Source: an uncultured Bacteroidales bacterium
GTDB taxonomy: Bacteria; Bacteroidota; Bacteroidia; Bacteroidales; UBA932
Length of the DNA stretch: 64,000 nt
Direction: 5' to 3'
NCBI GenBank assembly: GCA_934725575.1
Contig: CAKVCK010000001.1
Span: 218,808 to 282,807 of the forward strand
This document shows, piece by piece, positions 592 through 35,176 of this stretch (positions within the stretch are counted from its first letter, which is position 1; each line of letters starts with the position of its first letter). A model generated the notes under the pieces. The model did not search any database, was not told where the DNA came from, and worked only from the letters and a program-made list of their open reading frames with translations. Position numbers and translations under genes: made by a program.

Positions 592-2070
592 TTAATATGA
601 GATGGCAAACACCACTCTCTGCTTCGAAGGCTTGCCGGAGTAGATGTCCTTGCCTTCCTCCTCGCAGACGAAGCTGTCCACAGGGATGCAACGGATCGTG
701 GCCTTTGTCTCGTCCTTGATTTTCTGTTCGGTCTCGGCCGTGCCGTCCCAATGGCAGAGCAGGAACTTGCCTGTGCCGATCTTGGCCTTGAACTCCTCCC
801 AGTCGTCGCACTTCTCAACGTGTGACGCGCGGAAGTCGAACGCCTTCTGGTAAATCGTCTTCTGGATGTCGTCCAGAAGGGCGGCGATCGACTTGTCAAG
901 TCCCTCAAGGGCGACGGTCTGCTTCTCCAGAGTGTCTCTTCTGTGAACCTCGACAGTTCCATTCTCAAGATCGCGAGGCCCCATTGCCAGACGTACAGGG
1001 ACACCCTTGAGTTCCCACTCGGCGAACTTGAATCCCGGACGCAAGGTGTCACGGTCATCAATCTTGACCGTGTGTCCCTCAGCCTCAAGGGCCTTCTTAA
1101 GCTGATCCATCTTGTCCAAGATTCTTGTGTGTTCCTCATCGGTCTTGTAGATCGGAACCATAACGACCTGTATAGGAGCGAGGGCCGGCGGCAGGACAAG
1201 TCCGTTGTCATCGCCGTGAGCCATCACGAGGGCACCCATAAGTCTTGTGGAAACGCCCCAGGATGTGGCCCACACGTACTGCTGCTGGCCTTCCTTATCC
1301 GTATATTTCACATCGAACGACTTGGCGAAGTTCTGGCCGAGGAAATGTGACGTGCCTGCCTGAAGAGCCTTTCCGTCCTGCATCATCGCCTCGATTGTGA
1401 GGGTGTCGAGCGCTCCGGCAAACCTCTCGTTAGGGCTCTTGTGTCCCACGATCACAGGCAGAGCCATAAACTCACGTGCGAACTTCGCGTACACCTGAAC
1501 CATTCTCTGAGCCTCCTCCTGAGCCTCCTGCGAGGTCGCGTGGGCCGTGTGGCCCTCCTGCCAGAGGAACTCGGCGGTGCGGAGGAAAAGCCTTGTGCGC
1601 ATCTCCCAGCGGACAACGTTCGCCCATTGGTTGCACATAATCGGGAGATCCCTCCAGGATGTGATCCAGTTCTTGTATGTGCTCCAGATGATGGTCTCGG
1701 AGGTAGGCCTTACGATAAGCTCTTCCTCAAGCTTGGCGGACGGATCCACGACAACGCCCTTTCCATCAGGATCGTTCATAAGCCTGTGATGTGTGACGAC
1801 GGCACACTCCTTGGCGAATCCGGCCACGTGCTCGGCCTCCTTGCTGAAGAAAGACTTAGGAATGAAAAGCGGGAAATAGGCGTTCACCGCCCCCGTCTCC
1901 TTGAACATCTTGTCCAAGGCCTGCTGCATCTTCTCCCAGATCGCATAGCCATAAGGCTTTATCACCATACATCCCCTGACAGCGGACTGCTCCGCCAAGT
2001 CTGCCTTCACAACCAGATCATTATACCACTGAGAGTAATTCTCAGATCTTTTTGTCACTTCCTTTGCCAT
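592..2070 (-). CDS. proS: Proline--tRNA ligase (archaeal/eukaryote-like type typical of Bacteroidetes)
   Basis: 492 aa. Class II aaRS motifs and typical ProS N- and C-terminal sequence ([20 protein letters not shown]...; C-terminal zinc-binding-like domain). Full-length ORF. Confidence 0.95.
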
Positions 2071-2218: not shown

Positions 2219-3655
2219 ATGAAAACACGCACAATCCTCTTTATCTCGGCGCTTCTGGCACTGACTTCGTGCGGTTCAGCGGCGCGGTTTGCCAGTGATG
2301 CTTCCAGGCAGAAGTATCAGGATGGAATCTACTATACATCCAATGCCAAGGTCCATCAAGCCGAGGAGGCAGCCACCTCCGCAAATGACGAGGAGACCGA
2401 CCTTCTGGTAGCAAAGACAAAGAACTCCCCGATCTTCATGAAGAGCGGAGAGAAGGTTGACACTCTGTTCATCCCTGAGAACAAAGCGGCAAGAATAGAT
2501 TTCAACAACACTGACAACACCACATCCGTTTACCTCTACGACAACGGTTTCGACACCTGGGCCGCCTACCAGCCTTGGTACGCGACGTCATGGTATTCCT
2601 GGAACCGTCCTTTCTACACGTCAATCTATTGGGGCGCGAATCCTTGGTACTATGGTGGTTGGTACTCACCGTGGCACTACGACCCTTGGTATTATGGATA
2701 TTCCTGGAGATGGGGCAGTCCGTGGTATTACAGCGGATGGTACGACCCTTGGTATTGGGATCCTTGGTACTATAGCGGATGGTACGGTGGCTGGTATGGC
2801 GGATGGTACGGCGGATGGCATGATCCGTGGTACTACGGAGGATGGGGCTATGGTCATCATCACCACCACCACGGCCACGACTTCTTCGGTCCTGGCAGCG
2901 GACGGGTTTACACTCCACGTCTTAGCACAACCGGCTCAAGCAGAAGAAGCGGAATCGGGTCCTCTTCAAGGAGCGCCGGAGTGAGAAGTTCCTCAATGAC
3001 CAGATCAAGAAGCGGCGCTGGATCAACAAGATCCTCAATGTCAGCGACTACCACAAGGTCTTCAAGCCTTGGCGGACGCACAAGCGGCACAAGGTCATCA
3101 ATATCCTCGGTCAACAGGCCGGCATCCTCATCCGTAAGATCCTCATCAGCAAGATCATCCTCGGTAAGGTCTTCGTCTGACAGGTCCTCATCCGTCAGGT
3201 CATCGGTCGGCGGCACTGTCAGATCCAGCGGATCATCCTCATTCGGGACCTCTACCGGCTCATCTTCAGTCAGGTCATCCTACGGCAGCAGCCGTTCGTC
3301 ATCCTCTTCATCCTCGACGATGTACTCAAGACCGGCAAGCGGTAGCAGAAGCTCAAGCGGAACGACCTCAGGCGGATTCTCTACAGGATCCAGCAGAAGC
3401 TCTTCAACAGGCAGCTACAGATCTTCGGGATCTTCCTACAGGTCTTCGTCAAGCAATGATTATTCTTCCGGCTCGACGAGAAGCTCAAGCAGCTACTCCA
3501 CAAGCAGGAGTTCAAGTTCATATTCTTCCGGCAGCTCAAGCCGCAGCAGTAGCAGCTATTCCGGCGGCGGGTTCTCCGGTGGCGGATCATCCAGAAGTTC
3601 AGGTGGTTCGTACGGCGGAGGAGGCGGCTCCAGAAGCGGTGGCGGAAGAAGGTAA
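2219..3655 (+). CDS. Surface lipoprotein with an aromatic (Trp/Tyr/Gly) repeat region, a natural His6 run and a long Ser/Arg-rich low-complexity C-terminal tail. Function unknown.
   Basis: Start chosen at the internal Met giving MKTRTILFISALLALTSCGSA (lipobox LTSC). DPWYY/GGWY repeats occur about 10 times, then HHHHHH, then roughly 250 aa of S/R/G-rich sequence. The long continuous frame gives shadow ORFs on the opposite strand. Confidence 0.8.
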   Translation: MKTRTILFISALLALTSCGSAARFASDASRQKYQDGIYYTSNAKVHQAEEAATSANDEETDLLVAKTKNSPIFMKSGEKVDTLFIPENKAARIDFNNTDNTTSVYLYDNGFDTWAAYQPWYATSWYSWNRPFYTSIYWGANPWYYGGWYSPWHYDPWYYGYSWRWGSPWYYSGWYDPWYWDPWYYSGWYGGWYGGWYGGWHDPWYYGGWGYGHHHHHHGHDFFGPGSGRVYTPRLSTTGSSRRSGIGSSSRSAGVRSSSMTRSRSGAGSTRSSMSATTTRSSSLGGRTSGTRSSISSVNRPASSSVRSSSARSSSVRSSSDRSSSVRSSVGGTVRSSGSSSFGTSTGSSSVRSSYGSSRSSSSSSSTMYSRPASGSRSSSGTTSGGFSTGSSRSSSTGSYRSSGSSYRSSSSNDYSSGSTRSSSSYSTSRSSSSYSSGSSSRSSSSYSGGGFSGGGSSRSSGGSYGGGGGSRSGGGRR

Positions 3656-3676
3656 CCATTAAAAACAATTGAAATA

Positions 3677-5407
3677 ATGAGAAAGGCAATATTCACTGCG
3701 CTTTTGTCATTGACCGCGGTAGCGGCCGGGGCGCAGACAATGTATGACGGGCTGACGTTCAGCCAGAACAACTACTACGGAACGGCAAGGTCGATCGGTA
3801 TGGGCAACGCGATGACGGCTGTCGGCGGCGACCTTGGCTCAATCGGAATCAATCCGGCGGGATCGGCCGTGGCGGGGTACTCCCAGTTCACGATCACGCC
3901 GAATCTCACGCTCAGTTCGATGAACTCCTCCTACAGTGCCTACCCTGTCGGAGGAGTTGACAACTTCTCCAATGAGAGACGCGAGAGTCTCACCAGATTC
4001 TCGATGCCGAACATCGGTGCGACATTCAACTGGAAAACCGGCAGCAGGAGCGGCCTGACCGCCATCACTTATGGATTTGTTGTCAACGGGACGAACAATT
4101 TCACCGGCAAGATGATGGCCGGTGGCAGGAACGACAAGACAAGTTACATCAGTTCCATGGCTGTGGCGGCAGAAGGTTATGACATGGATTTCCTTAACGG
4201 ATATTCCATCAACAGCAACAACGAGAGAGTGGACAGAGGTTGGGACTACCCCTACAACTACCCGGATGATTACGCCCATGACCCTAACAAAGGCTCATAC
4301 GCGCCATGGAATGTGATCGCGAACGTCCAGGCAGGAGCGCTTTCCAATTTCGGAGACTCTAACGATCCCGCCTACTACTGGCGCTACATAGGCGCGACTG
4401 AAATCTATGAGCAAACAGGTGAGAAAGATGCCGATGGCAACTACATCTACAACATTTCTCTTCCCGGTGCGTTGGACCAGGCGTACGGCAGGAATGTCAC
4501 CGGAAGCAAATATGACGTGTTGCTCAATGTCGGGTTCAATTTTGGAGAGACGTTCTTCCTCGGAGCGAATCTCGGAATAACCTCCCTCAACTACAACTAT
4601 GATGAATATTTCAAGGAAGCCGCGGAGAACCCGTCGGCATTCGAGATGGACTTCGGAGAGAAAGGCAAGACCTACTTCAGCGACTATCGCACCCGTTACT
4701 CCTACACGGCGGACGGAAGCGGAGTCTACGGCAAGTTCGGATTTCTTTGGAGACCTGTGGACGGGATACGCGTAGGTGGAGCCGTTCAGACACCGACAAT
4801 CATGGAAATCAACGAACGTTGGAGACAAGATGTCAATGTCAACTACACCGACGCCTCATTCAACGGGTCGGCCAAGACGCCTGAGGGGGATTATTCCTAC
4901 AGACTACGCTCGCCTTACAGACTCAACGCCGGAGCCGCGTTCACTTTCGCGGGAATGGCTCTTATAAGCGCGGACTACGAGATGACCGACTACAGCACGA
5001 TGAAGTTCATGAGCAGGGATGGCGGATGGAATGACGACACCTACGGGAAACTGAATGACGAGATCCGCGACCGTATGGGAGTGTCCCACATGGTAAGGGT
5101 CGGGGCGGAGTTCAAACCGATGCCGGAGATAGCCGTCCGCGCGGGCTATAATTTCACCACGACTCCTGAATATGTCTACGAAGGCAACAGCAAGACAACG
5201 CTGAACGACAGAATCAACGCTTTCTCCGTAGGCCTTGGATATTCATCAAACGGATCGTTCTTCGCGGACATCGCGGCAAGGCTGATGACATTGTCTGATG
5301 AATATATCTCACCTTACGCAGACTATCTTGACGATGTGGCATCTCCGATGATCCTCAACAAGAGGGACATCTACAGCGTCACCGCGACGATTGGCTGGCG
5401 ATTCTAA
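3677..5407 (+). CDS. Outer-membrane beta-barrel protein, FadL/OmpP1/TodX-like (PorV-like fold)
   Basis: Signal peptide MRKAIFTALLSLTAVAAGAQ. N-terminal hatch-like motif GTARSIGMGNAMTAVGGDLGSIGINPAGSA matches the FadL-family consensus (G.A...GMGGA..A...D.SA...NPAGLA). C-terminal aromatic ...ATIGWRF. Starts 22 nt after the lipoprotein gene, so probably the same operon. Confidence 0.75.
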   Translation: MRKAIFTALLSLTAVAAGAQTMYDGLTFSQNNYYGTARSIGMGNAMTAVGGDLGSIGINPAGSAVAGYSQFTITPNLTLSSMNSSYSAYPVGGVDNFSNERRESLTRFSMPNIGATFNWKTGSRSGLTAITYGFVVNGTNNFTGKMMAGGRNDKTSYISSMAVAAEGYDMDFLNGYSINSNNERVDRGWDYPYNYPDDYAHDPNKGSYAPWNVIANVQAGALSNFGDSNDPAYYWRYIGATEIYEQTGEKDADGNYIYNISLPGALDQAYGRNVTGSKYDVLLNVGFNFGETFFLGANLGITSLNYNYDEYFKEAAENPSAFEMDFGEKGKTYFSDYRTRYSYTADGSGVYGKFGFLWRPVDGIRVGGAVQTPTIMEINERWRQDVNVNYTDASFNGSAKTPEGDYSYRLRSPYRLNAGAAFTFAGMALISADYEMTDYSTMKFMSRDGGWNDDTYGKLNDEIRDRMGVSHMVRVGAEFKPMPEIAVRAGYNFTTTPEYVYEGNSKTTLNDRINAFSVGLGYSSNGSFFADIAARLMTLSDEYISPYADYLDDVASPMILNKRDIYSVTATIGWRF

Positions 5408-5451: not shown

Positions 5452-6081
5452 CTAAAGATTTTTAAGATAGGAGATTGAATCGGGACCTTCGTTGAAAAGG
5501 AGATCCATGATGGAAAGATTCGGAACGAAACCGTACTTTCGGGCAAAGACCTGGAAGTACGGTTTTTCCAGTTTGAGGTCTCTGAGAATGTTGTCTGGAC
5601 GTTTCGGATGGATCAGTTCCCTATAGTCAATTCCGTACCTACCGGTGTCCATCGGGATCTCACGGGAACGGACGGGAACATATTCATCGGTCATTCTCAA
5701 ATCGGCCGTGATGCCGGTCTTTCGGAGGAAAAACTTGATTATCTGGAGATTCAGGTCGAAGAGGGTCGCTGGACGAGAGTCAAGGATTCCGAACAGTTCG
5801 TCCTTGTAATATTCAAAATAAGCGGAAGATTCGTAAGCTGAGGCGATCGCCCGCTCGGTACGGATCAGCCACGGGGTTGAGTAATCCACCTTGATCTCGG
5901 TGATCGGCAATTCGTGCGTACTGCTTTCGTGAACAATCGGGAAATTAAGACTCTGAGGGCCGTCGGCGGCATAGTAACGGAAGCGGTTCCTCCAGGATTG
6001 CTTCTGATAGTGCTCGCAGGCCTCAAGGTAAACGACAGAAGGCTTCACCCTGTCCGGAGACAAGATGAAGTCTTTAGCCAT
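5452..6081 (-). CDS. WbqC-like family protein (tentative)
   Basis: Start placed at the internal Met (MAKDFILSPDR...) to avoid overlapping lpxA. Sequence is of the WbqC-like type (LNFPIVHESSTHELPITEIKVDYSTPW...). Family assignment from memory and uncertain. Confidence 0.5.
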   Translation of the reverse strand: MAKDFILSPDRVKPSVVYLEACEHYQKQSWRNRFRYYAADGPQSLNFPIVHESSTHELPITEIKVDYSTPWLIRTERAIASAYESSAYFEYYKDELFGILDSRPATLFDLNLQIIKFFLRKTGITADLRMTDEYVPVRSREIPMDTGRYGIDYRELIHPKRPDNILRDLKLEKPYFQVFARKYGFVPNLSIMDLLFNEGPDSISYLKNL

Positions 6082-6148
6082 CAATGCGAAATAGCTGACC
6101 GGCGGGAACCAGGCCACACTCAGCAGCACTGCCGCCTCCTCTTCAGAC

Positions 6149-6961
6149 CTATTCGAATTCTCCCTTCTCGTGGGAGTCGTTTGCCCTGATGATTCCACGC
6201 TTCGAGCTTCTGATGAAATTCAGGATCGTGTCACGCTCCTCGCTCTGAGGGAATCCGGCCTCCACCTTGGCGCAGCCGTCGGTGATGTTGTAGCCGGAGA
6301 AATAGATCGTGTCGTAGATGTCCTTGATGTTGCGGATCACGTCGGAAGAGAATCCGCGGCGGCGGAGTCCGACGATGTTCACGCCTGAATAGCAGATCGG
6401 ATCGCGGCCGCAGAGGACGTAAGGAGGGATATCCTTGTTGATCTTGGACATTCCGCCGACCATCGCGTGACATCCGATCTTGGAGAATTGGTGGGCCTTC
6501 GCCCCGCCACCGACAATTGCCCAGTCATCCACAACGGTCTCTCCGGCGATGCCGACAAAGCTTACAAGGATGCAATGATTGCCGACCACGCAGTCGTGAG
6601 CCACGTGAACGTAGGACATCAGCAGAGTGTTGCTGCCGATCTTCGTCACGCACTTACCGCTGGCCTTGGTGCCACGGTTGATCGTCACACACTCGCGGAT
6701 GGTGACATTGTCGCCAATCTCCACGTATGTGACCTCACCCTCATATTTAAGATCCTGAGGGATGGCGCCTACCACAGCACCTGGGAATACCTGGCAATTC
6801 TTCCCCATCTTGACGTATGAATATATCATCGCATGCGGATGGATCTTGCATCCGTCTCCGATCTCCACGTCATCATCGATGAAGGCGAAAGGACCGATCT
6901 CAATGTTGTCGCCAAGCTTCGCCTTAGGGCTGACTGACGCTAATGGTGAAATTGTGTTCAT
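6149..6961 (-). CDS. lpxA: Acyl-ACP--UDP-N-acetylglucosamine O-acyltransferase
   Basis: 270 aa. Left-handed beta-helix hexapeptide repeats and an LpxA-type C-terminal helical domain. Sits directly downstream of lpxC. Confidence 0.9.
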   Translation of the reverse strand: MNTISPLASVSPKAKLGDNIEIGPFAFIDDDVEIGDGCKIHPHAMIYSYVKMGKNCQVFPGAVVGAIPQDLKYEGEVTYVEIGDNVTIRECVTINRGTKASGKCVTKIGSNTLLMSYVHVAHDCVVGNHCILVSFVGIAGETVVDDWAIVGGGAKAHQFSKIGCHAMVGGMSKINKDIPPYVLCGRDPICYSGVNIVGLRRRGFSSDVIRNIKDIYDTIYFSGYNITDGCAKVEAGFPQSEERDTILNFIRSSKRGIIRANDSHEKGEFE

Positions 6962-9630: not shown

Positions 9631-10896
9631 ATGGAAAAGAAAGAAGAAATCACTCTCATTGATGCCTTCAAGGACTTCAAGGAAGAGAAGAACATCGACA
9701 GGCCTGTGATGATGGGCGTTCTCAAGGACGTGTTCCTCACACAGATCGCCAAGACTTTCGGATCGGCCGACAATTTCGATGTCATCATCAACGTTGACAA
9801 GGGAGACTGCGAGATCTACCAGAACTTCGATGTGGTCGAGGAGGTGGAGAATCCTAACACACAGATCACTCTTGATCAGATCAAGGCCGAGACCGGTGAT
9901 GACGACTACGAGATCGGAGACGTGTACACGAAGAAACTCTCCCTCGCGTCTTTCGGTAGAAGAGGAATCCTGAACATCAGGCAGAACCTTCAGGGCCGCA
10001 TCATGGACATCGACAAGGCGAATGTATTCAAGGCATATTCCGACAAGATCGGCGAGATATTCACGGGTGAGATCTACCAGACTTGGTCGAAGGAGGTCAT
10101 CATCCTTGACGACGACAACAATGAGCTTCATCTGCCTAAGGCCGAGCAGATTCCAGGAGAGAGATTCAAGAAGGGAGACACCCTCCGCGCCATCATCAAG
10201 AGCGTGGAGATGAAGAACAACACCACCCCTTACATCACTCTTTCCAGAACATCCAACGAGTTCCTTGAGAAACTCTTCGAGCATGAGGTTCCGGAGATAT
10301 TCGATGGCCTCATCACCATCAAGAAGGTTGTCCGTGTACCTGGCGAGCGCGCCAAGGTGGCTGTCGAGTCCTACGACGAGAGGATCGACCCGATCGGAGC
10401 GTGCATCGGCGTGAAGGGATCAAGAATCATCGGAATCGTGCGCGAGCTCCGCAACGAGAATATCGACGTGCTCCAGTGGACTAACAACACGCAGCTTCTC
10501 ATCCAAAGAGCCCTCAATCCTGCAAGAGTGTCATCAATCGACCTCGGCAACTCGGAAGAGGACAAGATCAAGGTTTACATGCAGCCTGACGAGGTCAAGA
10601 AAGGTATCGGTCGCGGAGGATGCAACATCAAGCTGGCAGGCATGCTTGTCGGAAGAGAGATCGAGGTCTGGAGAGAGCTTCCTAAGGACGAGGCTCAGGA
10701 AGAGGAGGACGTTCTCCTCAGCGAATTCAGCAACGAGATAGACCAGTGGGTGATCGACAGACTGGAGGCCATCGGATGCGACACGGCCAAGAGCGTGCTC
10801 GCGTTCACACCTGAGGACATCGCCAAGAGGGCCGACCTTGAGGATGAGACCGTGGCCGAAGTGTTCAGGATCCTGAGGGCCGAATTTGAAGAATAG
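9631..10896 (+). CDS. nusA: Transcription termination/antitermination factor NusA
   Basis: 421 aa. N-terminal domain plus S1 and two KH domains ([11 protein letters not shown]..., [12 protein letters not shown]). Followed by infB. Confidence 0.95.
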
Positions 10897-10939
10897 TCCA
10901 GGCCGAATAGCGGACAATATTAATTTAAAGGGGTTGAAT

Positions 10940-13921
10940 ATGGCAGAAATCAGACTAAATAAAATCATCAAGACTTACAACATCGGGCTTCAGAAACTTG
11001 TGGACTTTTTGGCCAGCAAGGGAGTTGAGGTCGAAGCCAATCCTAACGTGAAGATCTCGGAGGATCTTCTTCCGGCGATTGACAAGCAATTCGAGAAGGA
11101 CAAGGCCAACAAGCAGGCTGCGGAAAAGATTGACATCAAACTCAACGAGATTCTGGAAAAGACATCCAGAAAGCAGCAGGAAAGCGCCAAAGAGGAAGAG
11201 GATGAACCGGTAAGGGAAACTGTCATCAAGACAACCATCTTCACTCCTGTCGAGCCTAAACCGGAACCTCAAGCCGCTGTTCATGAAGAGACGGAACCTG
11301 AGCGCGAAGAGGAAGTGGAGCCGATGGCTGAGCCAGAGCCACAGCCGGAACCACAACCTGAGCCACAGCCTGAGACCCAGGCGCCGGTCGAGGAGCAGGT
11401 AAAGGAACCGGAAACGAAACCCGAGGCAGAGCATGTCAAGGAGAGTCCGGTGATCGAGGAGCCTAAGCAGGAAGTCGTGGCCGAATCCAAGCCGGAGAAA
11501 AAGGTGGATAAACCCGTCAAGAACGTTACCCCTGAGCCGACAACCCCTGCTCCAGGGAAGGATGTCCGTGGCGGCGAGAGACCGCTGAGCAAGCACGAGA
11601 GGAAACTTGCGGCCAGACAGAGGGAGGAACAGGCGAAAGCCAGACACCAGCAGCAGGCACAACCTCAGGCTCAGGCACAACCTCAGGCTCAGGCACAACC
11701 TCAACAGCCTCAGGCCAAGGAGGAAAAGCCAGCGGAGCAAAGTTCCACCCCTGGGCTCAAAGTCTTGGGGAAGATTGACTTGTCCCAGTTCGAGCCTAAG
11801 AAGGGTAACAAGAAGAGAGAGAGAATAGCCAAGGGAAGCCAGAAGGTTGACGTGGCGAAGGAAGGCAAGCAGGCTGACAACAGTTCCCGCAAGGATAAGA
11901 ACAAGAATGCCAAGCAGGCTCAGGAGCAGGGCAAGGGCGGCAAGAAGCGCAACCGTGGGACGGACCGCTTCAAGCCGGCCATGACCGAGGAGGAGCAGGA
12001 GGCGATGCAGAAGGAGATCCAGAAGCAGGTCAAGGAGACCTACGCCAGGATGAACGACAACAAGAAGAACAACTTCGGAGCCAAGTACAGAAAGGAGAAG
12101 AGGGAGCAGGCCGCGGCCAAGTCCCAGGAGGAGATGGCACAGGAGATAGCCGAGAAGAAGGTCCTCAAGGTCACCGAGTTCGTGACCGTGAACGACCTCG
12201 CCACCCTTATGAACAACACTCCAGTCAACGAGGTCATCAAGGCTTGCATGGATCTGGGTCTTATGGTTTCCATCAACCAAAGGCTTGACGCAGAGGCGCT
12301 TGTGCTTGTCGCCGAGCAGTTCGGCTACAAGGTAGAGTTTGTGACCGCCGACCTCACCGAAGAGATCGAGGGAAGCAGCGAACAGGCTGACCGCGAGGAA
12401 GACCTTGTTCCGAGACCACCGATCATCACTGTGATGGGACACGTTGACCATGGTAAGACATCGTTGCTCGACTATATTCGTAAGTCAAACGTCATCGCAG
12501 GAGAGGCGGGAGGTATCACCCAGCACATCGGTGCCTACAACGTGAAGCTTCCAGACGGCAGGAGGATCACCTTCCTTGACACCCCTGGACACGAGGCGTT
12601 CACCGCTATGCGTGCCCGTGGAGCCCAGCTCACCGACCTTGCGATCATCATCATCGCGGCCGATGACGCTGTGATGCCTCAGACAGTCGAGGCCATCAAC
12701 CACGCCCAGGCGGCCGGTGTACCGATGGTGTTCGCCATCAACAAGATAGACAAGCCAGGCGCCCAGCCGGAAAGGATCTACCAGCAACTGGCACAAATGA
12801 ATATCCTAACTGAGGCATGGGGTGGGAAATACCAGTGTCAGGAAATCTCCGCGAAGAAGGGACTCAACGTCGACAAGCTTCTTGAGAAGGTTCTCCTTGA
12901 GACCGACCTTCTTGACCTCAAGGCCAACCCGAACAAGAACGGTGTCGGAGCGGTCATCGAGTCATCCCTTGACAAGGGACGTGGATATCTCGCCACGGTA
13001 CTCGTGCAGGACGGAACACTCAAGACCGGAGACATGGTGCTGAGCGGCAGTTACTACGGCCGTGTGAAGGCCATGTTCAACGAACGTGGACAGAAAGTGA
13101 AAGAGGCCGGTCCTTCGACCCCTGTTTCAATCCTCGGTCTGAACGGAGCGCCGAGCGCCGGTGACAAGTTCAATGTGATGAGCGACGAGAAGGAGGCCAA
13201 GGCAATCGCCAACAAGCGTGAGCAGCTCCTGCGAATCCAGGGCATCAAGACTCAGAAGCACATGACCCTTGAGGAGATCGGACGACGGATCGCCATCGGC
13301 AACTTCAAGGAACTCAACGTCATCGTGAAGGGTGACGTGGACGGATCGGTGGAGGCTCTCTCAGATTCCCTCATCAAGCTCTCAACCGAGCAGGTTCGTG
13401 TCAATGTGATCCACAAGGCTGTGGGAGCGATCTCCGAGTCCGATGTGATCCTGGCCGAGGCTTCGGATGCGGTCATCATCGGATTCCAGGTACGTCCTTC
13501 CACGGACGCAAGGAAACTGGCCGACGAGCAGGGAATCGAAATCCGTCTCTACTCCGTCATCTACGACGCCATCAACGATGTGAAGGACGGTATCGAAGGT
13601 ATGCTTGAGCCTATCAAGAAGGAGGAGATCACCGGAACGGCGGAGGTCAAGCAGACCTTCAAGATCTCGAAGGTCGGAACGATCGCCGGCTGTCTTGTCA
13701 GGGACGGTAAGATCGCTAAGACGGCGCAGTGCAGGCTTATCCGTGACGGTATCGTGGTTTACACCGGCGAGCTCGCCTCGCTCAAGAGGGGCAAGGACGA
13801 CGTGAAGGAGGTTTCCGCCGGAATGGAGTGTGGTATCGGCATCGACAAGTTCAACGACCTGAAGGTCGGGGACAATATCGAGGCGTTCGTGATCACAGAA
13901 ATCAAGCAGACGCTTGATTAA
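10940..13921 (+). CDS. infB: Translation initiation factor IF-2
   Basis: Start at [11 protein letters not shown]. Low-complexity N-terminal linker (PEPQ and QAQP repeats, K/E-rich), then GTPase G-domain motifs ([17 protein letters not shown]) and C-terminal domains. Confidence 0.95.
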
Positions 13922-17908: not shown

Positions 17909-19678
17909 ATGACAAAATTTCTTGCTATCCTTAATTCGGTAGCTCTTCTGCTATGCTCTGCAATTTTCCTGAATGCACAGGAGCGCGATTCTCGTACCAG
18001 GACATACATTTCACCTTCACGTGTCGTATGGCAGAGTGATGCCGGTGTTCGCCTCTCTGATGTTCTGCTCAAACCTGGTAACGGCCAGGCCTACTGCAAC
18101 AATGACACCCCGGAATCGTACTGCATCATGAAATCAGGTGACGGAGTGCATCCTGCAATCCTTCTCGACTTCGGAAAGGAATTGCATGGAGGACTTCAGC
18201 TCGTCACCGGTCCAATCGTGGATCCTGTTCAAGTACGTGTACGCTATGGAGAATCAGCAAGCGAGGCGATGTCCGAAGTCGGCGGCAAGGGCGGTGCGAC
18301 GAATGATCACTCCATACGGGACCAGATAGTTTTACTTCCGATGATGGGCACGGTGGAAATCGGTAATTCCGGATTCCGTTTCGTGCGCATTGACCTCATT
18401 GACAATGACAGGGAACTGAAACTCAAGGAAGCAAGAGCCATTTCAATAATGCGTGACATTGAATATGTCGGTTCTTTCAGCAGCAGCGATGATCGCCTGA
18501 ACCGGATTTGGGAGACGGGAGCCTACACGGTGCATCTGTGTATGCAGAATTTCCTTATCGAGGGCATAAAGCGCGACAGGCTTGTATGGATGGGCGATTC
18601 CTATCCGATGGTCATGACGATTGCGACTGTCTTCGGAAACAATGAGGTGGTCCCCAGAACACTTGACTGGATGCGTGACATAACTCCTCTTCCAAAATGG
18701 ATGAACGGGTTCTCTGCGACTTACTCGATATGGTGGATGCTTTGTTGTCATGACTGGTATCGCCACACCGGAAATCTGGACAATCTTCTTGAGTCCAGAG
18801 GATACATCACGGAGCTGTTGCGCTTGTTGATTTCCAAAATATCTTCTGATGGACGTGAAAACCTTAACGGGCCACGTTTCCTTGACTGGCCGACTGAAGG
18901 CAACAAACAGGCAAAGGATGTAGGAATTCAGGCCCTGATGGTTCTTGCAATGCAGTGTGGGCAGGATTTTGGAACTATATTCAATGACCAGCAACTCAAG
19001 AATGACTGTGCTGCAGCCGAGAAACTCCTCACTAAACCAGCAAACAAACTCTACGACGAGTTCCTCAAGTCCGATGTCGCTCCTGATGCGCCGGGGTCAA
19101 AGCAGGCTGCGGCGCTGATGACTCTCGCAGGTCTTACGAGTGCCAAGAACGCAGACAAGGATATCCTTTCCTACAATGGAGGCCATGGATTCTCGACTTT
19201 CTACGGATATATTATGCTTGAGGCAATGGCACGTGCAGGTGACTGGCAGGGTGCGCTCGACATCATCCGCAACTATTGGGGAGCGATGATTGACCTCGGA
19301 GCGACGACATTCTGGGAAGATTTCAACCTTGACTGGCTTCCGAACGCGGCCGGCATTGACGAACTTGTCCCGGAAGGGAAAAAGGACATTCACGGCGATT
19401 TTGGCGCATATTGCTACCTGGGTTTCCGTCACAGTCTGTGTCATGGCTGGGCATCCGGTCCGACAGCATGGATTAGCCATCATGTCCTCGGTATCGAAAT
19501 CCTCGAACCGGGTTGTGCCCAAGTCCGTATCACCCCGCATCTTGGTGACCTCGACTGGGCTGAAGGCTCGTTCCCGACGCCATACGGCCCAATCAGAGTA
19601 CGCCACGAAAGACAGTCTGACGGAAGTATCCACACGGAAGTCTCCGTCCCGGACGGTGTCGAAATTGTCGGCAAATAA
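17909..19678 (+). CDS. Alpha-L-rhamnosidase-like glycoside hydrolase (GH78 six-hairpin catalytic domain)
   Basis: 589 aa with a signal peptide. (alpha/alpha)6 domain motifs (WMGDSYPM, GHGFSTFYGYIMLEAMARAG, TFWEDFNLDW, CHGWASGP). Shorter than multi-domain GH78 enzymes. Confidence 0.8.
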   Translation: MTKFLAILNSVALLLCSAIFLNAQERDSRTRTYISPSRVVWQSDAGVRLSDVLLKPGNGQAYCNNDTPESYCIMKSGDGVHPAILLDFGKELHGGLQLVTGPIVDPVQVRVRYGESASEAMSEVGGKGGATNDHSIRDQIVLLPMMGTVEIGNSGFRFVRIDLIDNDRELKLKEARAISIMRDIEYVGSFSSSDDRLNRIWETGAYTVHLCMQNFLIEGIKRDRLVWMGDSYPMVMTIATVFGNNEVVPRTLDWMRDITPLPKWMNGFSATYSIWWMLCCHDWYRHTGNLDNLLESRGYITELLRLLISKISSDGRENLNGPRFLDWPTEGNKQAKDVGIQALMVLAMQCGQDFGTIFNDQQLKNDCAAAEKLLTKPANKLYDEFLKSDVAPDAPGSKQAAALMTLAGLTSAKNADKDILSYNGGHGFSTFYGYIMLEAMARAGDWQGALDIIRNYWGAMIDLGATTFWEDFNLDWLPNAAGIDELVPEGKKDIHGDFGAYCYLGFRHSLCHGWASGPTAWISHHVLGIEILEPGCAQVRITPHLGDLDWAEGSFPTPYGPIRVRHERQSDGSIHTEVSVPDGVEIVGK

Positions 19679-19691
19679 AATTGTTGATTGC

Positions 19692-21515
19692 CTATCTTGC
19701 GGCCACCGAAGACAATGCTCTCCAGTCGCCGCAAGGGACTTTCACTGTTTTTGTCTTGTTGCCGCAGCGGACGACAATGCTGTCGGAACCGGAGGCGTTC
19801 AAGATATAGACGCTTTTTCCGCGACGGGGCACATCAATGACGGCATTGTCCTGATATACGGCGATTATGAGTTCCGTATCGCTCTCTGCCTCGATGACAG
19901 GGTAGCCAAGTTCTGGATGGTGTGGACGGAATTCGCTTTTGAGCAGGGTCTCGCGATGTTCGGAGGCGAATTTCATCCATTTTCTCATGACGTCAAGTTG
20001 TTCTTCAGGGATATTCCTCAGCATTGTCGAGTATTGTACGACTCCGAAAATGGAATTGATTATCGCTCTTCCCACATTTTCCGGAGTTTCGGAAATATTC
20101 CATTCCAACATGTCTGAATGCACGGCAGTCGAACCGCTCGTCAGTCTGAGGGAGGCGATTCTCATTCTGTTGTCTTTGGCGTTGCCAGGACAGTCTGCTG
20201 CTCGGAACATGTTTCCGTACTGTCTGATGGCCGGACCTATGTACTGCTGTCTGAACTCAATGAGAATATCCGGTTTGATGGCTCTCAGAGCGGATGAAAC
20301 CTCTTTCATCAGCAGGTTCACTGCCTCGCTGAGATTCATGATGTCCCTTCCGGCATAATTCTCTTTTACGGCAGGATCCTCTCCCTGAAATCTGAAACTG
20401 TCGATGAAATCGAGTTTGAATCCATCCAGATTCCAGTCTTTCAATGCCTTTGTGTACAGTTCCACAAGATGTTTCCTGACCTCCGGGAAACGTGGGTCAA
20501 GCACAGCGCAACGGCTGCTCCTGTCATTGTAGAGGAACTTTCCTTCAAACTTCTTGTAGGAATCGCTGTTCCATCCGATGTATGGAACGCTGTACCAGAC
20601 AAGATATTTCATTCCTAGATCATGGACTGCTGAGACGTGTACCGCCATGTCCGGGAATTTTTTCGGGGCCGGTCTCCAGTCTCCACAGAAGGCATAACCT
20701 CTGTTTCCGTCAGTTGTCTGCCAACCGTCATCGAGAATTACGGTCTTCATTCCGAGATCTGCAGCAATACGGCACTCCTGTTCAATCGCTTCTGAGCTCA
20801 CATCCTGATGGAACTGGTACCAGCTTGAGTACAGCGGTTCAAATGCGGAATCGTTCACCGGAAAAGCATCGTAACCGTTCTCACGGCTCATCCACTCGGA
20901 TGCGTCACGGATGCTTTCTGCCCAGAATACAGGTCGTTTGTCAAGCAGAATTTTAGTCTCATAATGCTTTGCGGGAGCTTCTTTCTCTTTGAAGAATCTC
21001 AGTTCTGTGCAGATTGCGCAACCTTCTTCCATGACGCCGAGTACGGCATCTACCTTGCGGAGTACTTCTGAACAGGCGATTGTCAGGCAATTCGTATTGT
21101 TGTCATTGAAATACTCATATAGGGGCATCCTGTAGGCGAGTGAACTGCTGGCATTGGAGTGGCCCCAGAAAGGGTCCAGGTGCGTGCCGCAATTCACGTC
21201 CGGACTCCAGAAGTTGAAAACTCCTTTCTGCGGGAACGTGAAATATACATTGAATCTTGCCGGGGTAGCCTCGGACGCCGCATCCATAGAGATGCTGATT
21301 ATTTCTTTCCCTCCATCATTTTCTACCGATGCTGTAAATTTCCAGTCCCCGGGATTCTCGGAGACAATCACAATCTCATCTACAAGCGAACTGCTCAGTG
21401 CCGGGGCGACAATTGTTCCTTTGGACGCAAATGGATTGTCCGTCCAAGTGCTTTGGGCGTATGAAACGCATAAAGACAGAAAGGCTAATGCGATTGTGAG
21501 TATGTGTTTGTACAT
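19692..21515 (-). CDS. Glycoside hydrolase with an alpha-galactosidase-type (GH36-like, clan GH-D) TIM barrel
   Basis: 607 aa with a signal peptide. KTVILDDGWQ...GDW...KKFPDM...GMKYLVW pattern typical of the GH36/GH27 catalytic core. Confidence 0.6.
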   Translation of the reverse strand: MYKHILTIALAFLSLCVSYAQSTWTDNPFASKGTIVAPALSSSLVDEIVIVSENPGDWKFTASVENDGGKEIISISMDAASEATPARFNVYFTFPQKGVFNFWSPDVNCGTHLDPFWGHSNASSSLAYRMPLYEYFNDNNTNCLTIACSEVLRKVDAVLGVMEEGCAICTELRFFKEKEAPAKHYETKILLDKRPVFWAESIRDASEWMSRENGYDAFPVNDSAFEPLYSSWYQFHQDVSSEAIEQECRIAADLGMKTVILDDGWQTTDGNRGYAFCGDWRPAPKKFPDMAVHVSAVHDLGMKYLVWYSVPYIGWNSDSYKKFEGKFLYNDRSSRCAVLDPRFPEVRKHLVELYTKALKDWNLDGFKLDFIDSFRFQGEDPAVKENYAGRDIMNLSEAVNLLMKEVSSALRAIKPDILIEFRQQYIGPAIRQYGNMFRAADCPGNAKDNRMRIASLRLTSGSTAVHSDMLEWNISETPENVGRAIINSIFGVVQYSTMLRNIPEEQLDVMRKWMKFASEHRETLLKSEFRPHHPELGYPVIEAESDTELIIAVYQDNAVIDVPRRGKSVYILNASGSDSIVVRCGNKTKTVKVPCGDWRALSSVAAR

Positions 21516-21592
21516 ATGAACTGTTTAAAAAAATGTGATTGCTTCAAATGTGAGAATGCAAGATGTGTGAAATTCTGGCGAATAATATGACA

Positions 21593-23521
21593 CTACTCCG
21601 AAGGAGCATCATTGTATGCCCTGTATTCGCCCTTCATTACGTTCAGGGTTTTTGGAAGCCAGACTTTGTAGCGGGTGGATTTGTCCCAAGTATTGCCTGC
21701 TGAGGCGAAGTCGCAGAGGTGGATCTGGCGAGGCTTGCCGTTGCCTTCAAGGTCTGCTCCGGCAATCATCGGGGCTGTAAACGCCATCCACGCGAAATCG
21801 TTGTTGTCTGCCGGGGTCAGGGCGACGCTGCCGTCCTCCGAAGATTGGATTACCACACTTTCATCCACGAAACCGTCGTCGAAGCGCGAATCCCTTGCAA
21901 GGACTATAGGGCCGCGCACAATAGCCTGATGCCCATTCAGTTCGAACAGATGTGGCGTAAGGTCCAGCGAGAGTTCAATGCGGTCACCTTTCTTCCACCT
22001 GCGTTCTACTTTCGCATATTCGCCTGCAGAAAGATTCTCAAGATTTATTTTCAATGTATCTGTGCCGCTGATTACACTTGCCGTCGTTGTTTTGCTCCAC
22101 TGTGGTATCCTCAACGCCAAAGTGAATTCTGCGGGCTTTGCCGGCGAGAGTTCTATGGAGATGTTTCCGGAAACCGGATAATTGCCATGGAGACTGATTC
22201 CCATAGAGTTGCGTTTGTCCAGCGAAATCTCAGCCTCAGAATCACCATAATGGTTTATCTTCAGGCAATCTCCTTCTGTGATAAAAGCGAGAGCCGGAAT
22301 CATCGCGAAGGCGCGGGGACCATTGGCATTGCAGCAGTTTATATTCATATGGCATTGTTTTTCACCTTCCACTCTCCAGCCCTCAAGCGGGGTATATTTG
22401 GCAATCTGGCTTCCGTCGCACTTCATCGAACCGAGAATGGCGTTGTAGAATGTCTTCTCGATTTGGTCCGCGTAGCGGGAGTCTCCGCAGAATTTCAGGA
22501 GTCTGCTGCAGAGCTGCATCCAGGTGAAGCCGACGCAGGTCTCCATAGTGTGGTAGGTCGGAATTGTCTGGAGTGATTTTCCTCCGTACCAGCACTCGAC
22601 CGAGCTGCCTGAACCGGCGATGTTGATTTCCTCTTCGATTATGTGTGATACGCTCTTTCGTACGGCCTCGTAATCTGCTTCGTTTCCGGTCACTTTATAG
22701 TATTCGAGCAGTCCTTCGTAGCAGGACATCATTTCGTATGCCTTGGCTCCGTTTTCGTAGGAAAACCACTTTGTCTGAGGATGCGGAAAGCGCAGAGCCA
22801 CAGGTGTATCGGAGCGGCTGACCAGTCTTGGGCCGTCCTGGGTCTCCCACTGTGTGACGATGTCTGTCGCGAAATCGAGATAGCGTTTGTTTCCGGTTAT
22901 GTCGTACAGTTTCATAATCGGTTCGAGCACGGAAGAACTTGCCATGCCCCGGTACAGTCCGCATTTTACAATCTTGGCATTCTTGGATTTGAGCTGTGAA
23001 ATGAGGTGGTCTGCAACACCCGATGCCGCAGCAAGGGCCTGGCTGTCACCTGAAAGTTCGTACCATCCGAGCAGCCCCAGCATTGTGTACTTCCGTCCCC
23101 AAATGTCCCATTCGCGCAACTGATAATCAGGCGCATAGTTCCCGATGTAGCCGTCAGGTCCCTGGGTTTCCATGATATGTCTGACTGAAGCGGCAATCTT
23201 TTCATAAAGTGCTGCATCACCGGTGTAGCGGTACGTCTCGATTGCTCCCAAGGTCCATTTCCCCCAAAACTCGCTTTGCCATCGCCAGGATTCGTTCCTG
23301 TGACGGAAAGGCTCCACAAGTTCATCTACATCCTGTCCCATGACACGATGCAGGATGCAGTCGTCGATTCTTCTTCCTACATGTCCATTGATTTTCACCG
23401 ACTTCACCTTCATTTCCGCAGTCTTTGCGTGGCCGATGTTTCCTCCTGCGCAGATTGGGCAGGCGAAAATCGTTAGCAGAGCGCTCATGACAAATGTCTG
23501 AACACTAAGATTTTTTTTCAT
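21593..23521 (-). CDS. Glycoside hydrolase family 127 (beta-L-arabinofuranosidase / DUF1680 type)
   Basis: 642 aa with a signal peptide. Size and a Cys-rich HMNINCCNANGPRAF segment match the Zn-Cys3 site of HypBA1-type GH127. (alpha/alpha)6 N-terminal domain. Confidence 0.85.
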   Translation of the reverse strand: MKKNLSVQTFVMSALLTIFACPICAGGNIGHAKTAEMKVKSVKINGHVGRRIDDCILHRVMGQDVDELVEPFRHRNESWRWQSEFWGKWTLGAIETYRYTGDAALYEKIAASVRHIMETQGPDGYIGNYAPDYQLREWDIWGRKYTMLGLLGWYELSGDSQALAAASGVADHLISQLKSKNAKIVKCGLYRGMASSSVLEPIMKLYDITGNKRYLDFATDIVTQWETQDGPRLVSRSDTPVALRFPHPQTKWFSYENGAKAYEMMSCYEGLLEYYKVTGNEADYEAVRKSVSHIIEEEINIAGSGSSVECWYGGKSLQTIPTYHTMETCVGFTWMQLCSRLLKFCGDSRYADQIEKTFYNAILGSMKCDGSQIAKYTPLEGWRVEGEKQCHMNINCCNANGPRAFAMIPALAFITEGDCLKINHYGDSEAEISLDKRNSMGISLHGNYPVSGNISIELSPAKPAEFTLALRIPQWSKTTTASVISGTDTLKINLENLSAGEYAKVERRWKKGDRIELSLDLTPHLFELNGHQAIVRGPIVLARDSRFDDGFVDESVVIQSSEDGSVALTPADNNDFAWMAFTAPMIAGADLEGNGKPRQIHLCDFASAGNTWDKSTRYKVWLPKTLNVMKGEYRAYNDAPSE

Positions 23522-23576
23522 ATTTATGTGCCTTTTAAATTTTGTACAACTAAGTTACGAAAAAATGTCCTTCTCT

Positions 23577-24530
23577 CTAGGACATCTTTACCGGAATGAT
23601 GAAGCCGTTTTCATCAAATTCGAGACGGTCAATGCAGACCACGCGGTTGTCTCCGTCGGTGGTATCGAGCGGATGGCGATGGTAGATAATGTAGTAATTG
23701 TCGCCACGTCGCACTACGCTGTGATGTCCGGCGCCTGTTCCGTGCTCAGTGTCGCCTTTAAGAATAGTACCTACTCTTTCGAACGGACCGTAAGGAGTGT
23801 CGGAAATGGAGTAGGCGACACGGTAGTTATCCTTGCGCCAGCTTCCTTCGCTCCACATGAAGTAGAACTTTCCGTTACGCTGAATCATAAACGGTCCCTC
23901 TACATAACCTTCAGGTGTGACCTCACGGAAAAGAGTTCCGTCCTCGAAAGGAACAATGGATGTGAAGTCATCGGAGAGCCGGACGAGATTGCAGTGGCCC
24001 CAGCCGCCGTAGAACATCAGCCAATCTCCGGATGCCGGATCCTGATAGACGAACTGGTCGATTGGCTGTGCCCCATTGACGATGTCGTTAAGAAGTGGCT
24101 TGCCGAGGAGGTCGCGGAAAGGGCCTTCGGGCTTGTCGGACACGGCTACACCTATGCCTCCTGTTTCTCCCTCATGAACATCGTTGCAGGCGAAGAAAAG
24201 GAAGAACTTTCCGTCCTTGTTCACGATGGCAGGAGCCCAGAGAGCCTTGTGAAGCCAGCTTATCTCTTTGTCTGTGATGATGTTGCTGTGCTTGGTCCAT
24301 GTCTTGAGGTCTTTGGAGGAGAATGCATCCATATGGAGCTGTTCCTCAAAAGGATGCGATGCTGTGGGATATATCCACAGTTCATCATCGATTATTATTC
24401 CCTCCGGGTCTGCATACTGTCCTTCGAAAAGCGGGTTTGTCCATCCCGTCCACTCCGATGTCTTCGGTGCACATGCGGATGTTATGAAAAAAGAAATTGA
24501 CGCAATTAATAGAATTGTTCTGAATTTCAT
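23577..24530 (-). CDS. Glycoside hydrolase family 43 (arabinofuranosidase/xylosidase type)
   Basis: Start at MKFRTILLIASI... (lipobox-like SAC). Five-bladed propeller motifs (YADPEGII, LWAPAIVNKDGKFFLFF, GGWGHCNLVRLSDD, EGPFMIQRNGKFYFMWSE). Confidence 0.85.
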   Translation of the reverse strand: MKFRTILLIASISFFITSACAPKTSEWTGWTNPLFEGQYADPEGIIIDDELWIYPTASHPFEEQLHMDAFSSKDLKTWTKHSNIITDKEISWLHKALWAPAIVNKDGKFFLFFACNDVHEGETGGIGVAVSDKPEGPFRDLLGKPLLNDIVNGAQPIDQFVYQDPASGDWLMFYGGWGHCNLVRLSDDFTSIVPFEDGTLFREVTPEGYVEGPFMIQRNGKFYFMWSEGSWRKDNYRVAYSISDTPYGPFERVGTILKGDTEHGTGAGHHSVVRRGDNYYIIYHRHPLDTTDGDNRVVCIDRLEFDENGFIIPVKMS

Positions 24531-24624
24531 ATGTTTTGTCATTATAAAAGTGGCTGAGACCGCTGTGTGGAATCAGCCACTTTCAGTTAGTAATCAATGT
24601 GTCAGTGCATAGTCAAGCCCGGAA

Positions 24625-26817: not shown

Positions 26818-26824
26818 TTCCCTA

Positions 26825-29020: not shown

Positions 29021-29032
29021 AGTTATCCTTCC

Positions 29033-30805: not shown

Positions 30806-30809
30806 AATT

Positions 30810-33779: not shown

Positions 33780-33814
33780 TTTATCGATATTATTAGTTTT
33801 TAGTTAAGGTTTGC

Positions 33815-34942: not shown

Positions 34943-35176
34943 GGTTTATTAGCTTTTTTCTTGTTGGAAACTCCGGATTATCCGGCTTGTCCCATAATTG
35001 TGCACGCCGCAAAGGTATAAACTAAATCGATATATTATAGCACATTTTCCGCCGCAATTCCTGCAAAGGAAATACAGGTAGGTATAGAGAAATGTTATTT
35101 TATTGAATATCAAAACATTCCCCGATTCGAACAAGTCGAACCAGGGAAATGTATTTTTGTCATTTTTTAGCGATAT

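Follow-up and report, generated by a model that had tools for sequence, protein, structure and literature searches.

A conserved gene pair of uncultured Bacteroidales encoding a mostly disordered lipoprotein and a predicted FadL-fold outer-membrane barrel

The window analysed here is a stretch of 64,000 nucleotides from contig CAKVCK010000001.1 (assembly GCA_934725575.1) of an uncultured Bacteroidales bacterium of the GTDB group UBA932. Near its start lie two genes on the forward strand. Gene 1 (2219-3655, stop codon 3653-3655) encodes a lipoprotein of 478 amino acids, most of it predicted to be intrinsically disordered, and gene 2 (3677-5407) encodes a protein of 576 amino acids predicted to form a 14-strand outer-membrane barrel with the FadL fold, in a subfamily that has no name. 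The two open reading frames (ORFs) share strand and reading frame, and are separated by a spacer of 21 nucleotides (3656-3676). A preliminary description of the locus had recognised the two closely spaced genes, but gave the distance as 22 nucleotides.

The ATG at 2219 is used as the start of gene 1 in public gene calls, an alternative being the TTG at 2165, and an exact look-up found the 478-residue product identically on 20 independent contigs. An AT-rich intergenic region (2071-2218) separates gene 1 from a divergent neighbour and presumably holds the promoter of the two-gene unit. A promoter scan of this region gave no sigma-70-type signal above chance, and no exact match to the Bacteroidetes TAnnTTTG (-7) motif was found upstream of gene 1. 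The 21-nucleotide spacer contains no terminator-like hairpin, and the terminator scan at the locus was at chance level.

Sequence and predicted structure of the two proteins

Gene 1 begins with a predicted type II signal peptide (2219-2272), MKTRTILFISALLALTS-C18, in which a hydrophobic core is followed by the lipobox L-T-S-C, and lipidation is predicted at Cys18 (codon 2270-2272). The lipobox conforms to [LVI][ASTVI][GAS]C, as it does in 99 of 105 members of the gene 1 family, and the Pfam model LPAM_1 gives a weak match (E=0.38). The N-terminal region comprises residues 18-116 and opens with a conserved segment, CG[ST]xAxxAS..Q.F.DGIY..P (2270-2344), in which C18, G19, D35, G36, I37, Y38, and P42 are nearly invariant. 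AlphaFold2, run on an alignment of 105 sequences and read with DSSP, predicts a helix at residues 43-68 (2345-2422), which is acidic in the family layout and has a predicted local distance difference test score (pLDDT) of about 57-77. A motif K-D-T-[VL]-x-I-P, with D81, T82, I85, and P86 conserved, precedes a predicted β-hairpin at residues 89-108 (2483-2542; strands 89-96 and 101-108), the only high-confidence element of the model (pLDDT 85-91). Mean pLDDT is 50, helix and hairpin are the only elements predicted, and residues 117-478 are devoid of secondary structure. The earlier view of gene 1 as a lipoprotein of almost wholly low complexity is thus borne out, and its division into an ordered N-terminal region, a Trp/Tyr/Gly block, a natural His6, and a Ser/Arg/Gly tail was accurate.

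No Pfam or NCBIfam model matched gene 1 above threshold, no enzyme or binding domain was found in Pfam, NCBIfam, or a profile search of the PDB, and the PDB matches of the gene 1 profile were of low complexity only (e.g. poly-Ser in mL77). The triplet D-T-L at residues 81-83 (window 2459-2467), located in the N-terminal region just ahead of the hairpin, is the one place where gene 1 fits the general O-glycosylation sequon of Bacteroidetes, D-[ST]-[AILVMT], and the motif [K/x]-D-T-[VLIAMT] is kept in 100 of 105 homologues. The conserved K-D-T site may be a glycosylation site or may simply be structural. Heavy O-glycosylation of the tail was considered and rejected, the single sequon lying in the N-terminal region.

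A database search with gene 1 returned 581 relatives. Those listed are 26-58% identical to it and share one layout, in the order lipobox, post-cysteine motif, acidic helix, K-D-T-V-x-I-P with hairpin, PWYY repeats, His run, Arg/Ser/Thr/Gly tail, and terminal RR; this architecture is kept in more than 100 homologues over that range of identity. The search was word-indexed and its count is a lower bound. It missed the identical protein present on 20 contigs, and its best match has 58% identity over 56% of the query; candidate selection seems to suffer from the low complexity. For the homologue P0217 and the members of its cluster, the source names seen were all 'hypothetical protein'. Another homologue, P0196 (L087:3866-5050), has no lipobox cysteine (…SFSPSAALIAQ|NSAARFNDGIY), and for this reason looks like a non-lipidated variant processed by signal peptidase I. 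It occupies the same place after proS, and is followed by the contig-truncated start of a downstream ORF.

Residues 113-212 (2555-2854) form a Trp/Tyr/Gly/Pro block with DPWYY and GGWY repeats that holds all 19 Trp of the protein. The pattern PW[YFH][YWF] occurs in 102 of 105 family members, in which the median numbers of Trp and Tyr are 17 and 36. Choline-binding (CW_binding) and YXWGXW repeats were tried as identities for the block and rejected, as there was no Pfam match at E≤1. A natural run of six His follows (residues 213-218; 2855-2872), the length of which varies from 1 to 10 across the family (median 5). The tail (residues 236-478; 2924-3652) ends in ...GGGRR, and its 243 residues include 115 Ser, 40 Gly, and 31 Arg, with a net charge of +29 and an isoelectric point of 12. 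Family tails contain 13% Arg versus 1% Lys, have a median net charge of +24, and end in RR in 96 of 99 members. Internal [YF]RR was observed 61 times against 13 expected from composition shuffles (z=12), despite a general depletion of RR in these tails. The motif recurs in family tails (e.g. in loci L092, L096, and L109), with one to three internal copies besides a C-terminal (Y/G)RR, and ten distant homologues show the enrichment as well. The window copy has it in degenerate form (YRS twice, NRP). The motif recalls the Y-R-K C-terminus of Escherichia coli Lpp.

Only two short tandem repeats, both small, are present in the DNA of gene 1 (2771-2822), and Ser is encoded by all six of its codons; what is of low complexity is therefore the protein and not the DNA. 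Between the tail and its counterparts in 14 close relatives there are 436, 240, and 1407 nucleotide differences at codon positions 1, 2, and 3, and synonymous codon changes outnumber non-synonymous ones 2.3:1 (1153 versus 491). This pattern indicates that the tail is under purifying selection, which in turn means that gene 1 is not a decaying ORF. Taken with the strong bias towards Arg and against Lys, the terminal RR, and the [YF]RR enrichment, it suggests that the tail is functional.

The gene 2 product starts with a predicted type I signal peptide (residues 1-19; 3677-3733; pLDDT <50) with a cleavage site at AGA|Q, and the mature N-terminus, Gln20, is invariant in the family. An N-terminal hatch, or plug, follows at residues 20-69 (3734-3883; pLDDT 89-95). 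It carries the NPA motif N59-P60-A61 (3851-3859), which is invariant in the three alignments A1, A2, and A4. The AlphaFold2 model, based on 90 sequences (pLDDT 86.4, predicted template modelling score 0.83), has a helical hatch and 14 long strands, which are joined by short turns on the periplasmic side and by long extracellular loops. With the hatch placed inside the lumen of a 14-strand β-barrel, the model has the arrangement typical of the FadL/OMPP1/TodX superfamily. Sequence entropy is lowest in the hatch (0.62), and higher in strands (1.32) and loops (1.50). The extracellular loops are variable across the family, and loop L2 (residues 153-265; 4133-4471), delimited by DSSP of the model, is an insertion relative to classical FadL. 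It is variable and indel-prone, with gap fractions of 0.2-0.7 and a disordered stretch at residues 189-206.

Gene 2 itself matches no Pfam or NCBIfam family above threshold, PF03349 (Toluene_X) included, and its sequence alone gave only noise against the PDB. A full-library HMMER search retrieved 386 clusters (50%-identity representatives) at E≤1e-30, and the source names seen for homologues were all 'hypothetical protein'. A profile of 54 diverse members matches the toluene channel TbuX at E=3e-5; two of the 54 match PF03349 at 5e-6, and ∼25 of 120 carry a precomputed match. In structural comparison, the model scored 30.2 against E. coli FadL, 29.5 against Porphyromonas gingivalis BamG, 29.4 against both TodX and Pseudomonas aeruginosa FadL, 29.2 against the FadL subunit of the Flavobacterium johnsoniae β-barrel assembly machinery (BAM), 29.1 against Bacteroides thetaiotaomicron BamG, and 26.1 against PorV, while the next fold, CymA, scored 18.9. 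Foldseek agrees with this result. Counted from the mature N-terminus, the Asn of NPA is residue 40 in gene 2, 33 in E. coli FadL, and 42 in PorV, and the highly conserved N-terminal extension over E. coli FadL is thus ∼7 residues (about 10-12 in BamG). A hatch profile gave a marginal match to the N-terminus of PorV (E=0.046). On the strength of the profile match, the fold scores, and the invariant NPA hatch, gene 2 is placed in the FadL superfamily, as the preliminary description had proposed, where it represents a distinct unnamed subfamily. Its distance to BamG is about the same as its distance to the transporters, and it is an orthologue of neither BamG nor PorV. At one related locus (L086), gene 2 is split into parts of 167 and 407 amino acids.

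Conservation of the pair

Two sets of loci were assembled. Set 1, a genome scan seeded with the barrel alignment, gave 80 species-level loci from uncultured Bacteroidales that are close relatives, of which 78 loci were evaluable, with enough upstream sequence, when three reached from gene 1 homologues are included. Set 2, a metagenome scan seeded with the most distant barrels, gave 80 loci, 58 of them evaluable. It spans a GC content of 34-62%, and its prolyl-tRNA synthetases (ProRS) are 69-90% identical to that of the window.

In set 1, 76 of 78 loci have an intact homologue of gene 1 immediately upstream of the barrel; at the two exceptions, L055 and L073, the N-terminal region of gene 1 is present and the frame is disrupted. 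In set 2, strict criteria were passed by 56 of 58 loci, and the remaining two appeared gene 1-like on inspection. There the N-terminal region falls below tblastn detection, while the layout and a YRR or GGRR terminus are kept. Overall, at least 132 of the 136 evaluable loci have an intact gene 1 next to the barrel on its upstream side, and among these 136 no barrel without the lipoprotein was seen. The two genes are on the same strand with a gap of 6-120 nucleotides in 131 of 132 intact pairs. Reverse look-up from gene 1 homologues gave the same picture, with a Pfam-less gene of ∼530-576 amino acids, or its contig-truncated start, immediately downstream in six of six cases, and the pair is still adjacent where the downstream neighbourhood differs (L001/L002). 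The adjacency is not due to chance. The search for conserved synteny proposed earlier has come out in favour of the pair, and neither of two outcomes that had been named as counting against it, homologues that never co-occur or a lipoprotein gene frameshifted or absent in relatives, is seen; co-occurrence is essentially constant, and the ORF is intact and under purifying selection. The apparent frame disruptions in L055, L073 (gene 1), and L086 (gene 2) may reflect misassembly of low-complexity DNA or the odd pseudogene.

All known carriers are related uncultured Bacteroidales. Many set 1 loci belong to Candidatus Cryptobacteroides, and exact ProRS matches assign some set 2 loci to Candidatus Coprenecus (Rikenellaceae incertae sedis) and Candidatus Egerieousia. 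The samples come from rumen, hindgut, chicken gut, and Hadza human gut.

Known systems and the role of the pair

In Bacteroidota, pairs of a barrel and a lipoprotein of this general type were not recognised until 2025. In the Bacteroidota BAM complex, the essential FadL-like barrel BamG (Bt4367) binds the surface lipoprotein BamH (Bt4306), the conserved N-terminus of which is wedged between BamG strands; the conserved extended N-terminus of BamG runs through the lateral opening, and the BamG loops are not conserved (PMC12578637). The paralogues Bt1785 (BamG2) and Bt1786 (BamH2) form an operon (PMC12578637). A structure from F. johnsoniae has the same arrangement, with the subunits named BamF and BamG (10.1101/2025.02.17.638638). 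In Vibrio cholerae, a gap of 16-23 bp separates the gene of the lipoprotein VolA from that of a FadL homologue, and the two are co-transcribed (PMC3656444). Given these precedents, the combination of a FadL-like barrel and a cognate lipoprotein is not new as a general kind, and the earlier statement that the pairing is undescribed stands for this particular pair only. Both families described here are undescribed, and a literature search found no paper on the pair.

The resemblance to BamG-BamH and Bt1785-Bt1786 lies in the combination of a lipoprotein with a 14-strand FadL-fold barrel (the paralogous genes also forming an operon), a conserved barrel N-terminus that is extended in gene 2 too, though by fewer residues than in BamG, variable loops, and a highly conserved N-terminal segment of the lipoprotein. 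In contrast, there is no detectable sequence relation of gene 2 to BamG or of gene 1 to BamH. The BamG chains in the PDB (9hiv, 9hjm, and 9n2d) match neither gene 2 nor its family profile at E≤10. Gene 2 is ∼170 amino acids longer than BamG, and gene 1 is ∼75% disordered whereas BamH is a folded crescent; gene 1 has no sequence or fold similarity to BamH (Bt4306). Like the classical channels FadL, TodX, and TbuX (PF03349), gene 2 has the invariant NPA; its family profile matches TbuX, and some of its homologues match PF03349. It differs from them in having no such match itself, in its large L2 insertion, in being always preceded by a dedicated lipoprotein, and in the absence of a catabolic neighbourhood. 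The VolA-FadL operon likewise combines a lipoprotein gene and a FadL-homologue gene ∼20 bp apart (PMC3656444), but the gene order is reversed, and VolA is a folded surface lysophospholipase, whereas gene 1 has no enzymatic domain. A further Bacteroidales barrel of the FadL family, the BSAP-1 receptor of Bacteroides fragilis, resembles gene 2 in its description, with a domain above the membrane and fast-diverging surface parts (PMC12853789); term searches of that paper and of a 2026 preprint on the receptor turned up no partner lipoprotein.

Export of Bacteroidota lipoproteins to the surface is signalled by two or more acidic residues among the ∼6 that follow the lipidated Cys (PMC5080379, PMC12578637). 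The window sequence C-GSAARF has none at positions +1 to +6, 98 of 99 homologues are without Asp or Glu in these six residues, and the distant homologues from metagenome loci lack acidic residues there as well; gene 1 thus lacks the export signal, in contrast to BamH-K and SusD-type proteins. As an internal control, the signal is present in the SusD homologue of the window (C-T-D-L-N-E), and also in a small lipoprotein at 55191 (C-G-K-D-E-N-D). Because of the missing signal, and because gut proteases would very readily attack a disordered chain rich in Arg and aromatic residues, we lean slightly towards a location on the periplasmic face, where the target would be peptidoglycan or inner-leaflet lipids. 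Docking could then not follow the geometry of BamG-BamH exactly. SusC/SusD-type complexes combine a 22-strand TonB-dependent barrel, which has a Plug domain, with a SusD-like lipoprotein. The likeness to SusCD suggested earlier does not hold, since the gene 2 barrel is not TonB-dependent and gene 1 is without the export signal borne by SusD-type partners, including the SusD homologue of the window. No Pfam match to Plug, TonB_dep_Rec, or SusD was found in the pair, although the genuine SusC/SusD pair of the window does match.

In E. coli, the outer-membrane lipoproteins Lpp and RcsF must extend away from their anchor to function. The C-terminus of Lpp, Y-R-K, contacts peptidoglycan, and the disordered linker of RcsF associates with an outer-membrane barrel. 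Gene 1 has no homology to either, is ∼4-8 times longer, and has a partner barrel of the FadL type. It ends in (Y/G)-R-R, with no Lys for covalent cross-linking.

The conservation of the operon, the FadL fold, the disorder, the purifying selection, and the missing export signal are computational results. Beyond them, we tentatively propose that the two genes encode a cognate outer-membrane pair in which the barrel docks the lipoprotein, a reading to which we give a probability of roughly 0.45. By analogy with the way BamG holds the N-terminus of BamH, the barrel would serve as a membrane dock for the conserved N-terminal segment of gene 1, and would not be a conduit for the tail; the dock is favoured over the conduit because the hatch that plugs the barrel is the most conserved part of gene 2. 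Lone ordered elements in disordered chains usually fold against a partner. The nearly invariant post-cysteine segment and the single confident hairpin in a disordered chain make gene 1 look like a partner-binding protein. A confident and most conserved hatch combined with variable loops is consistent with a dock, and the same pattern has been reported for BamG (PMC12578637). The disordered part would be the working part, a sticky tether or brush that may bind an anionic envelope polymer or self-associate through Arg-aromatic contacts.

Several points weigh against this proposal. Contact between the two proteins is argued by analogy, and the role of the tail as a tether or polyanion binder is read from composition. 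An invariant NPA and a conserved hatch would be equally expected of a working FadL-type transporter. The precedents (BamH, PorV cargo, and VolA) are all surface-exposed, which counts against a periplasmic location, and the export-signal rule, being empirical, does not hold in every case. In support of a partnership, the pairwise distances of gene 2 and of the N-terminal region of gene 1 are correlated (r=0.94; partial correlation 0.75 when ProRS is controlled for, permutation p about 5e-4), but both proteins evolve ∼3 times faster than ProRS, so that this mirror-tree signal is confounded and the partial correlation may be inflated by saturation. Finally, the block TilS-DUF3078-proS / pair / WbqC-LpxA-LpxC-LpxD is syntenic in many carrier genomes, so that an inherited gene order may account for some of the adjacency.

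Among the alternatives, an uptake system is unlikely, though less so than the others. Gene 1 would then be a capture accessory whose Trp/Tyr/Pro/His block binds the ligand, much as VolA serves a FadL homologue, and the invariant NPA, the highly conserved hatch, the TbuX profile match, and the Toluene_X matches of some members would all be accounted for. The co-transcribed VolA-FadL operon with its 16-23 bp gap (PMC3656444) offers a parallel, and the organisms come from samples of rumen and hindgut, which are rich in plant aromatics. Against this, gene 1 lacks both an enzyme or binding domain and the signal that would bring it to the surface where capture would occur, no genes of lipid or aromatic catabolism are found nearby in the window or related loci, and a polycationic tail of 240 amino acids with [YF]RR motifs has no obvious role with hydrophobic ligands. 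It is less probable still that there is no partnership at all, each protein acting alone beside proS by inherited gene order. The conservation of the flanking TilS-DUF3078-proS and WbqC-LpxA-LpxC genes, and the relatedness of all known carriers, would fit; a common strand and short gap in 131 of 132 intact pairs, the absence of solitary barrels, adjacency that survives changed downstream neighbours and a GC range from 34 to 62%, and distances that co-vary beyond what ProRS explains all speak for a functional link. The chances appear slim that the barrel translocates the disordered tail or threads it to the surface, in the style of RcsF-OmpA/C/F or two-partner secretion. A disordered chain is a suitable substrate for threading, a private route would suit a lipoprotein without the general export signal, and the barrel has a large extracellular insertion. 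Yet hatches plug the lumens of the FadL family, and the one modelled here is both confident (pLDDT 89-95) and the most conserved region; no member of the FadL family is known to conduct a polypeptide. BamG and PorV contact their partners at loops or the barrel wall and not via the lumen (PMC12578637). Of the earlier suggestion that the barrel anchors or exports the tail, export is consequently the weaker half.

Identity with known Bacteroidota systems is more doubtful than any of these. That the pair is this lineage's BamG/BamH or its paralogous BamG2/BamH2 is very unlikely: Bt1785-Bt1786 is also an operon (PMC12578637), and the gene 2 N-terminus is conserved and ∼7 residues longer than that of E. 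coli FadL, but no BamG chain was matched in the PDB at E≤10 where TbuX was found at 3e-5, the structural scores for BamG do not exceed those for the transport FadLs, gene 2 is ∼170 amino acids longer than BamG, and the disordered gene 1, with no export signal as carried by BamH-K, is unlike the folded arch of BamH. Even lower is the likelihood of a PorV-like shuttle of the type IX secretion system (T9SS) with gene 1 as cargo. PorV (PDB 6H3I) is a FadL homologue of Bacteroidota that binds a protein partner, its distance from mature N-terminus to NPA is similar (42 residues against 40), and the hatch profile matches it weakly (E=0.046). No model of PorV, PorP_SprF, or the T9SS C-terminal domain matched either protein at E≤1 in Pfam and NCBIfam, in line with the initial impression that such a domain is absent, and gene 1 is a lipoprotein ending in RR rather than a C-terminal-domain protein. 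The notion of gene 1 as a decaying or spurious ORF, which its extreme composition, the overlapping ORFs in other frames, and the disruption in 2 of 136 loci (L055 and L073) might invite, is refuted by its intactness in at least 132 loci and by purifying selection, as seen in the dominance of third-position changes and the 2.3:1 excess of synonymous changes in the tail; the identical protein on 20 contigs and the conserved RR terminus and motifs point the same way.

A bolder form of the docking proposal, which we regard as speculative and on balance improbable, is that gene 1 represents a new class of envelope protein, a lipid-anchored, conserved disordered protein that forms a gel, condensate, or tether and is held by a FadL-fold barrel. 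The Trp/Tyr block and the Arg/Ser/Gly tail with [YF]RR would then constitute a eukaryote-like 'sticker' grammar, and a link from outer membrane to peptidoglycan would be one example of its use. Bacteroidota is not known to have Braun's lipoprotein. If true, such a class would extend the FadL barrel as a lipoprotein holder beyond the BAM complex. 

FadL-fold barrels have only lately been recognised, in the BAM complex, as holders of lipoprotein N-termini. Under the docking proposal itself, the module would be a second, independent use of a FadL barrel in this way, with a partner unlike any described: strongly conserved, almost fully disordered, aromatic, and polycationic. Its conservation across several lineages of uncultured, ecologically important gut Bacteroidales makes it likely to matter for the envelope, and the module is a tractable case for studying the role of conserved disordered proteins there. 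If gene 1 is only an accessory to a fatty-acid channel, interest would be modest.

Surrounding genes

The divergent neighbour of gene 1 is proS (592-2070, reverse strand), which encodes prolyl-tRNA synthetase; we propose no functional link to the pair. The homologue at related loci matches Pfam tRNA-synt_2b/ProRS-C_1, and divergent proS is present at all 78 set 1 loci with enough sequence and in set 2 at 59 loci. In every related locus examined (e.g. L084:251-1351), proS adjoins tilS and a DUF3078 gene (PF11276), the whole block being syntenic; of these three genes, proS alone falls inside the window. On the other flank lie a convergent WbqC-like gene and then lpxA, lpxC, and lpxD. The longest ORF of the WbqC-like gene (5452-6198, GTG start) overlaps the 3' end of lpxA by 50 nucleotides (6149-6198), and its true start is probably downstream, since a shorter gene (202-235 amino acids) is called at related loci.

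No paralogue of gene 2 was found in the window. An ordinary polysaccharide-utilisation locus occupies 17909-36736, with SusC (30810-33779), SusD (29033-30805), two Mfa/fimbrillin-like lipoproteins, GDPD, GH127, a melibiase-like hydrolase, a rhamnosidase, and a DUF6377 regulator. In IF2 (10886-13921), the N-terminal part contains low-complexity repeats, including EPEPQPEPQ, which account for the AT skew of 0.4-0.55 in that part of the window.

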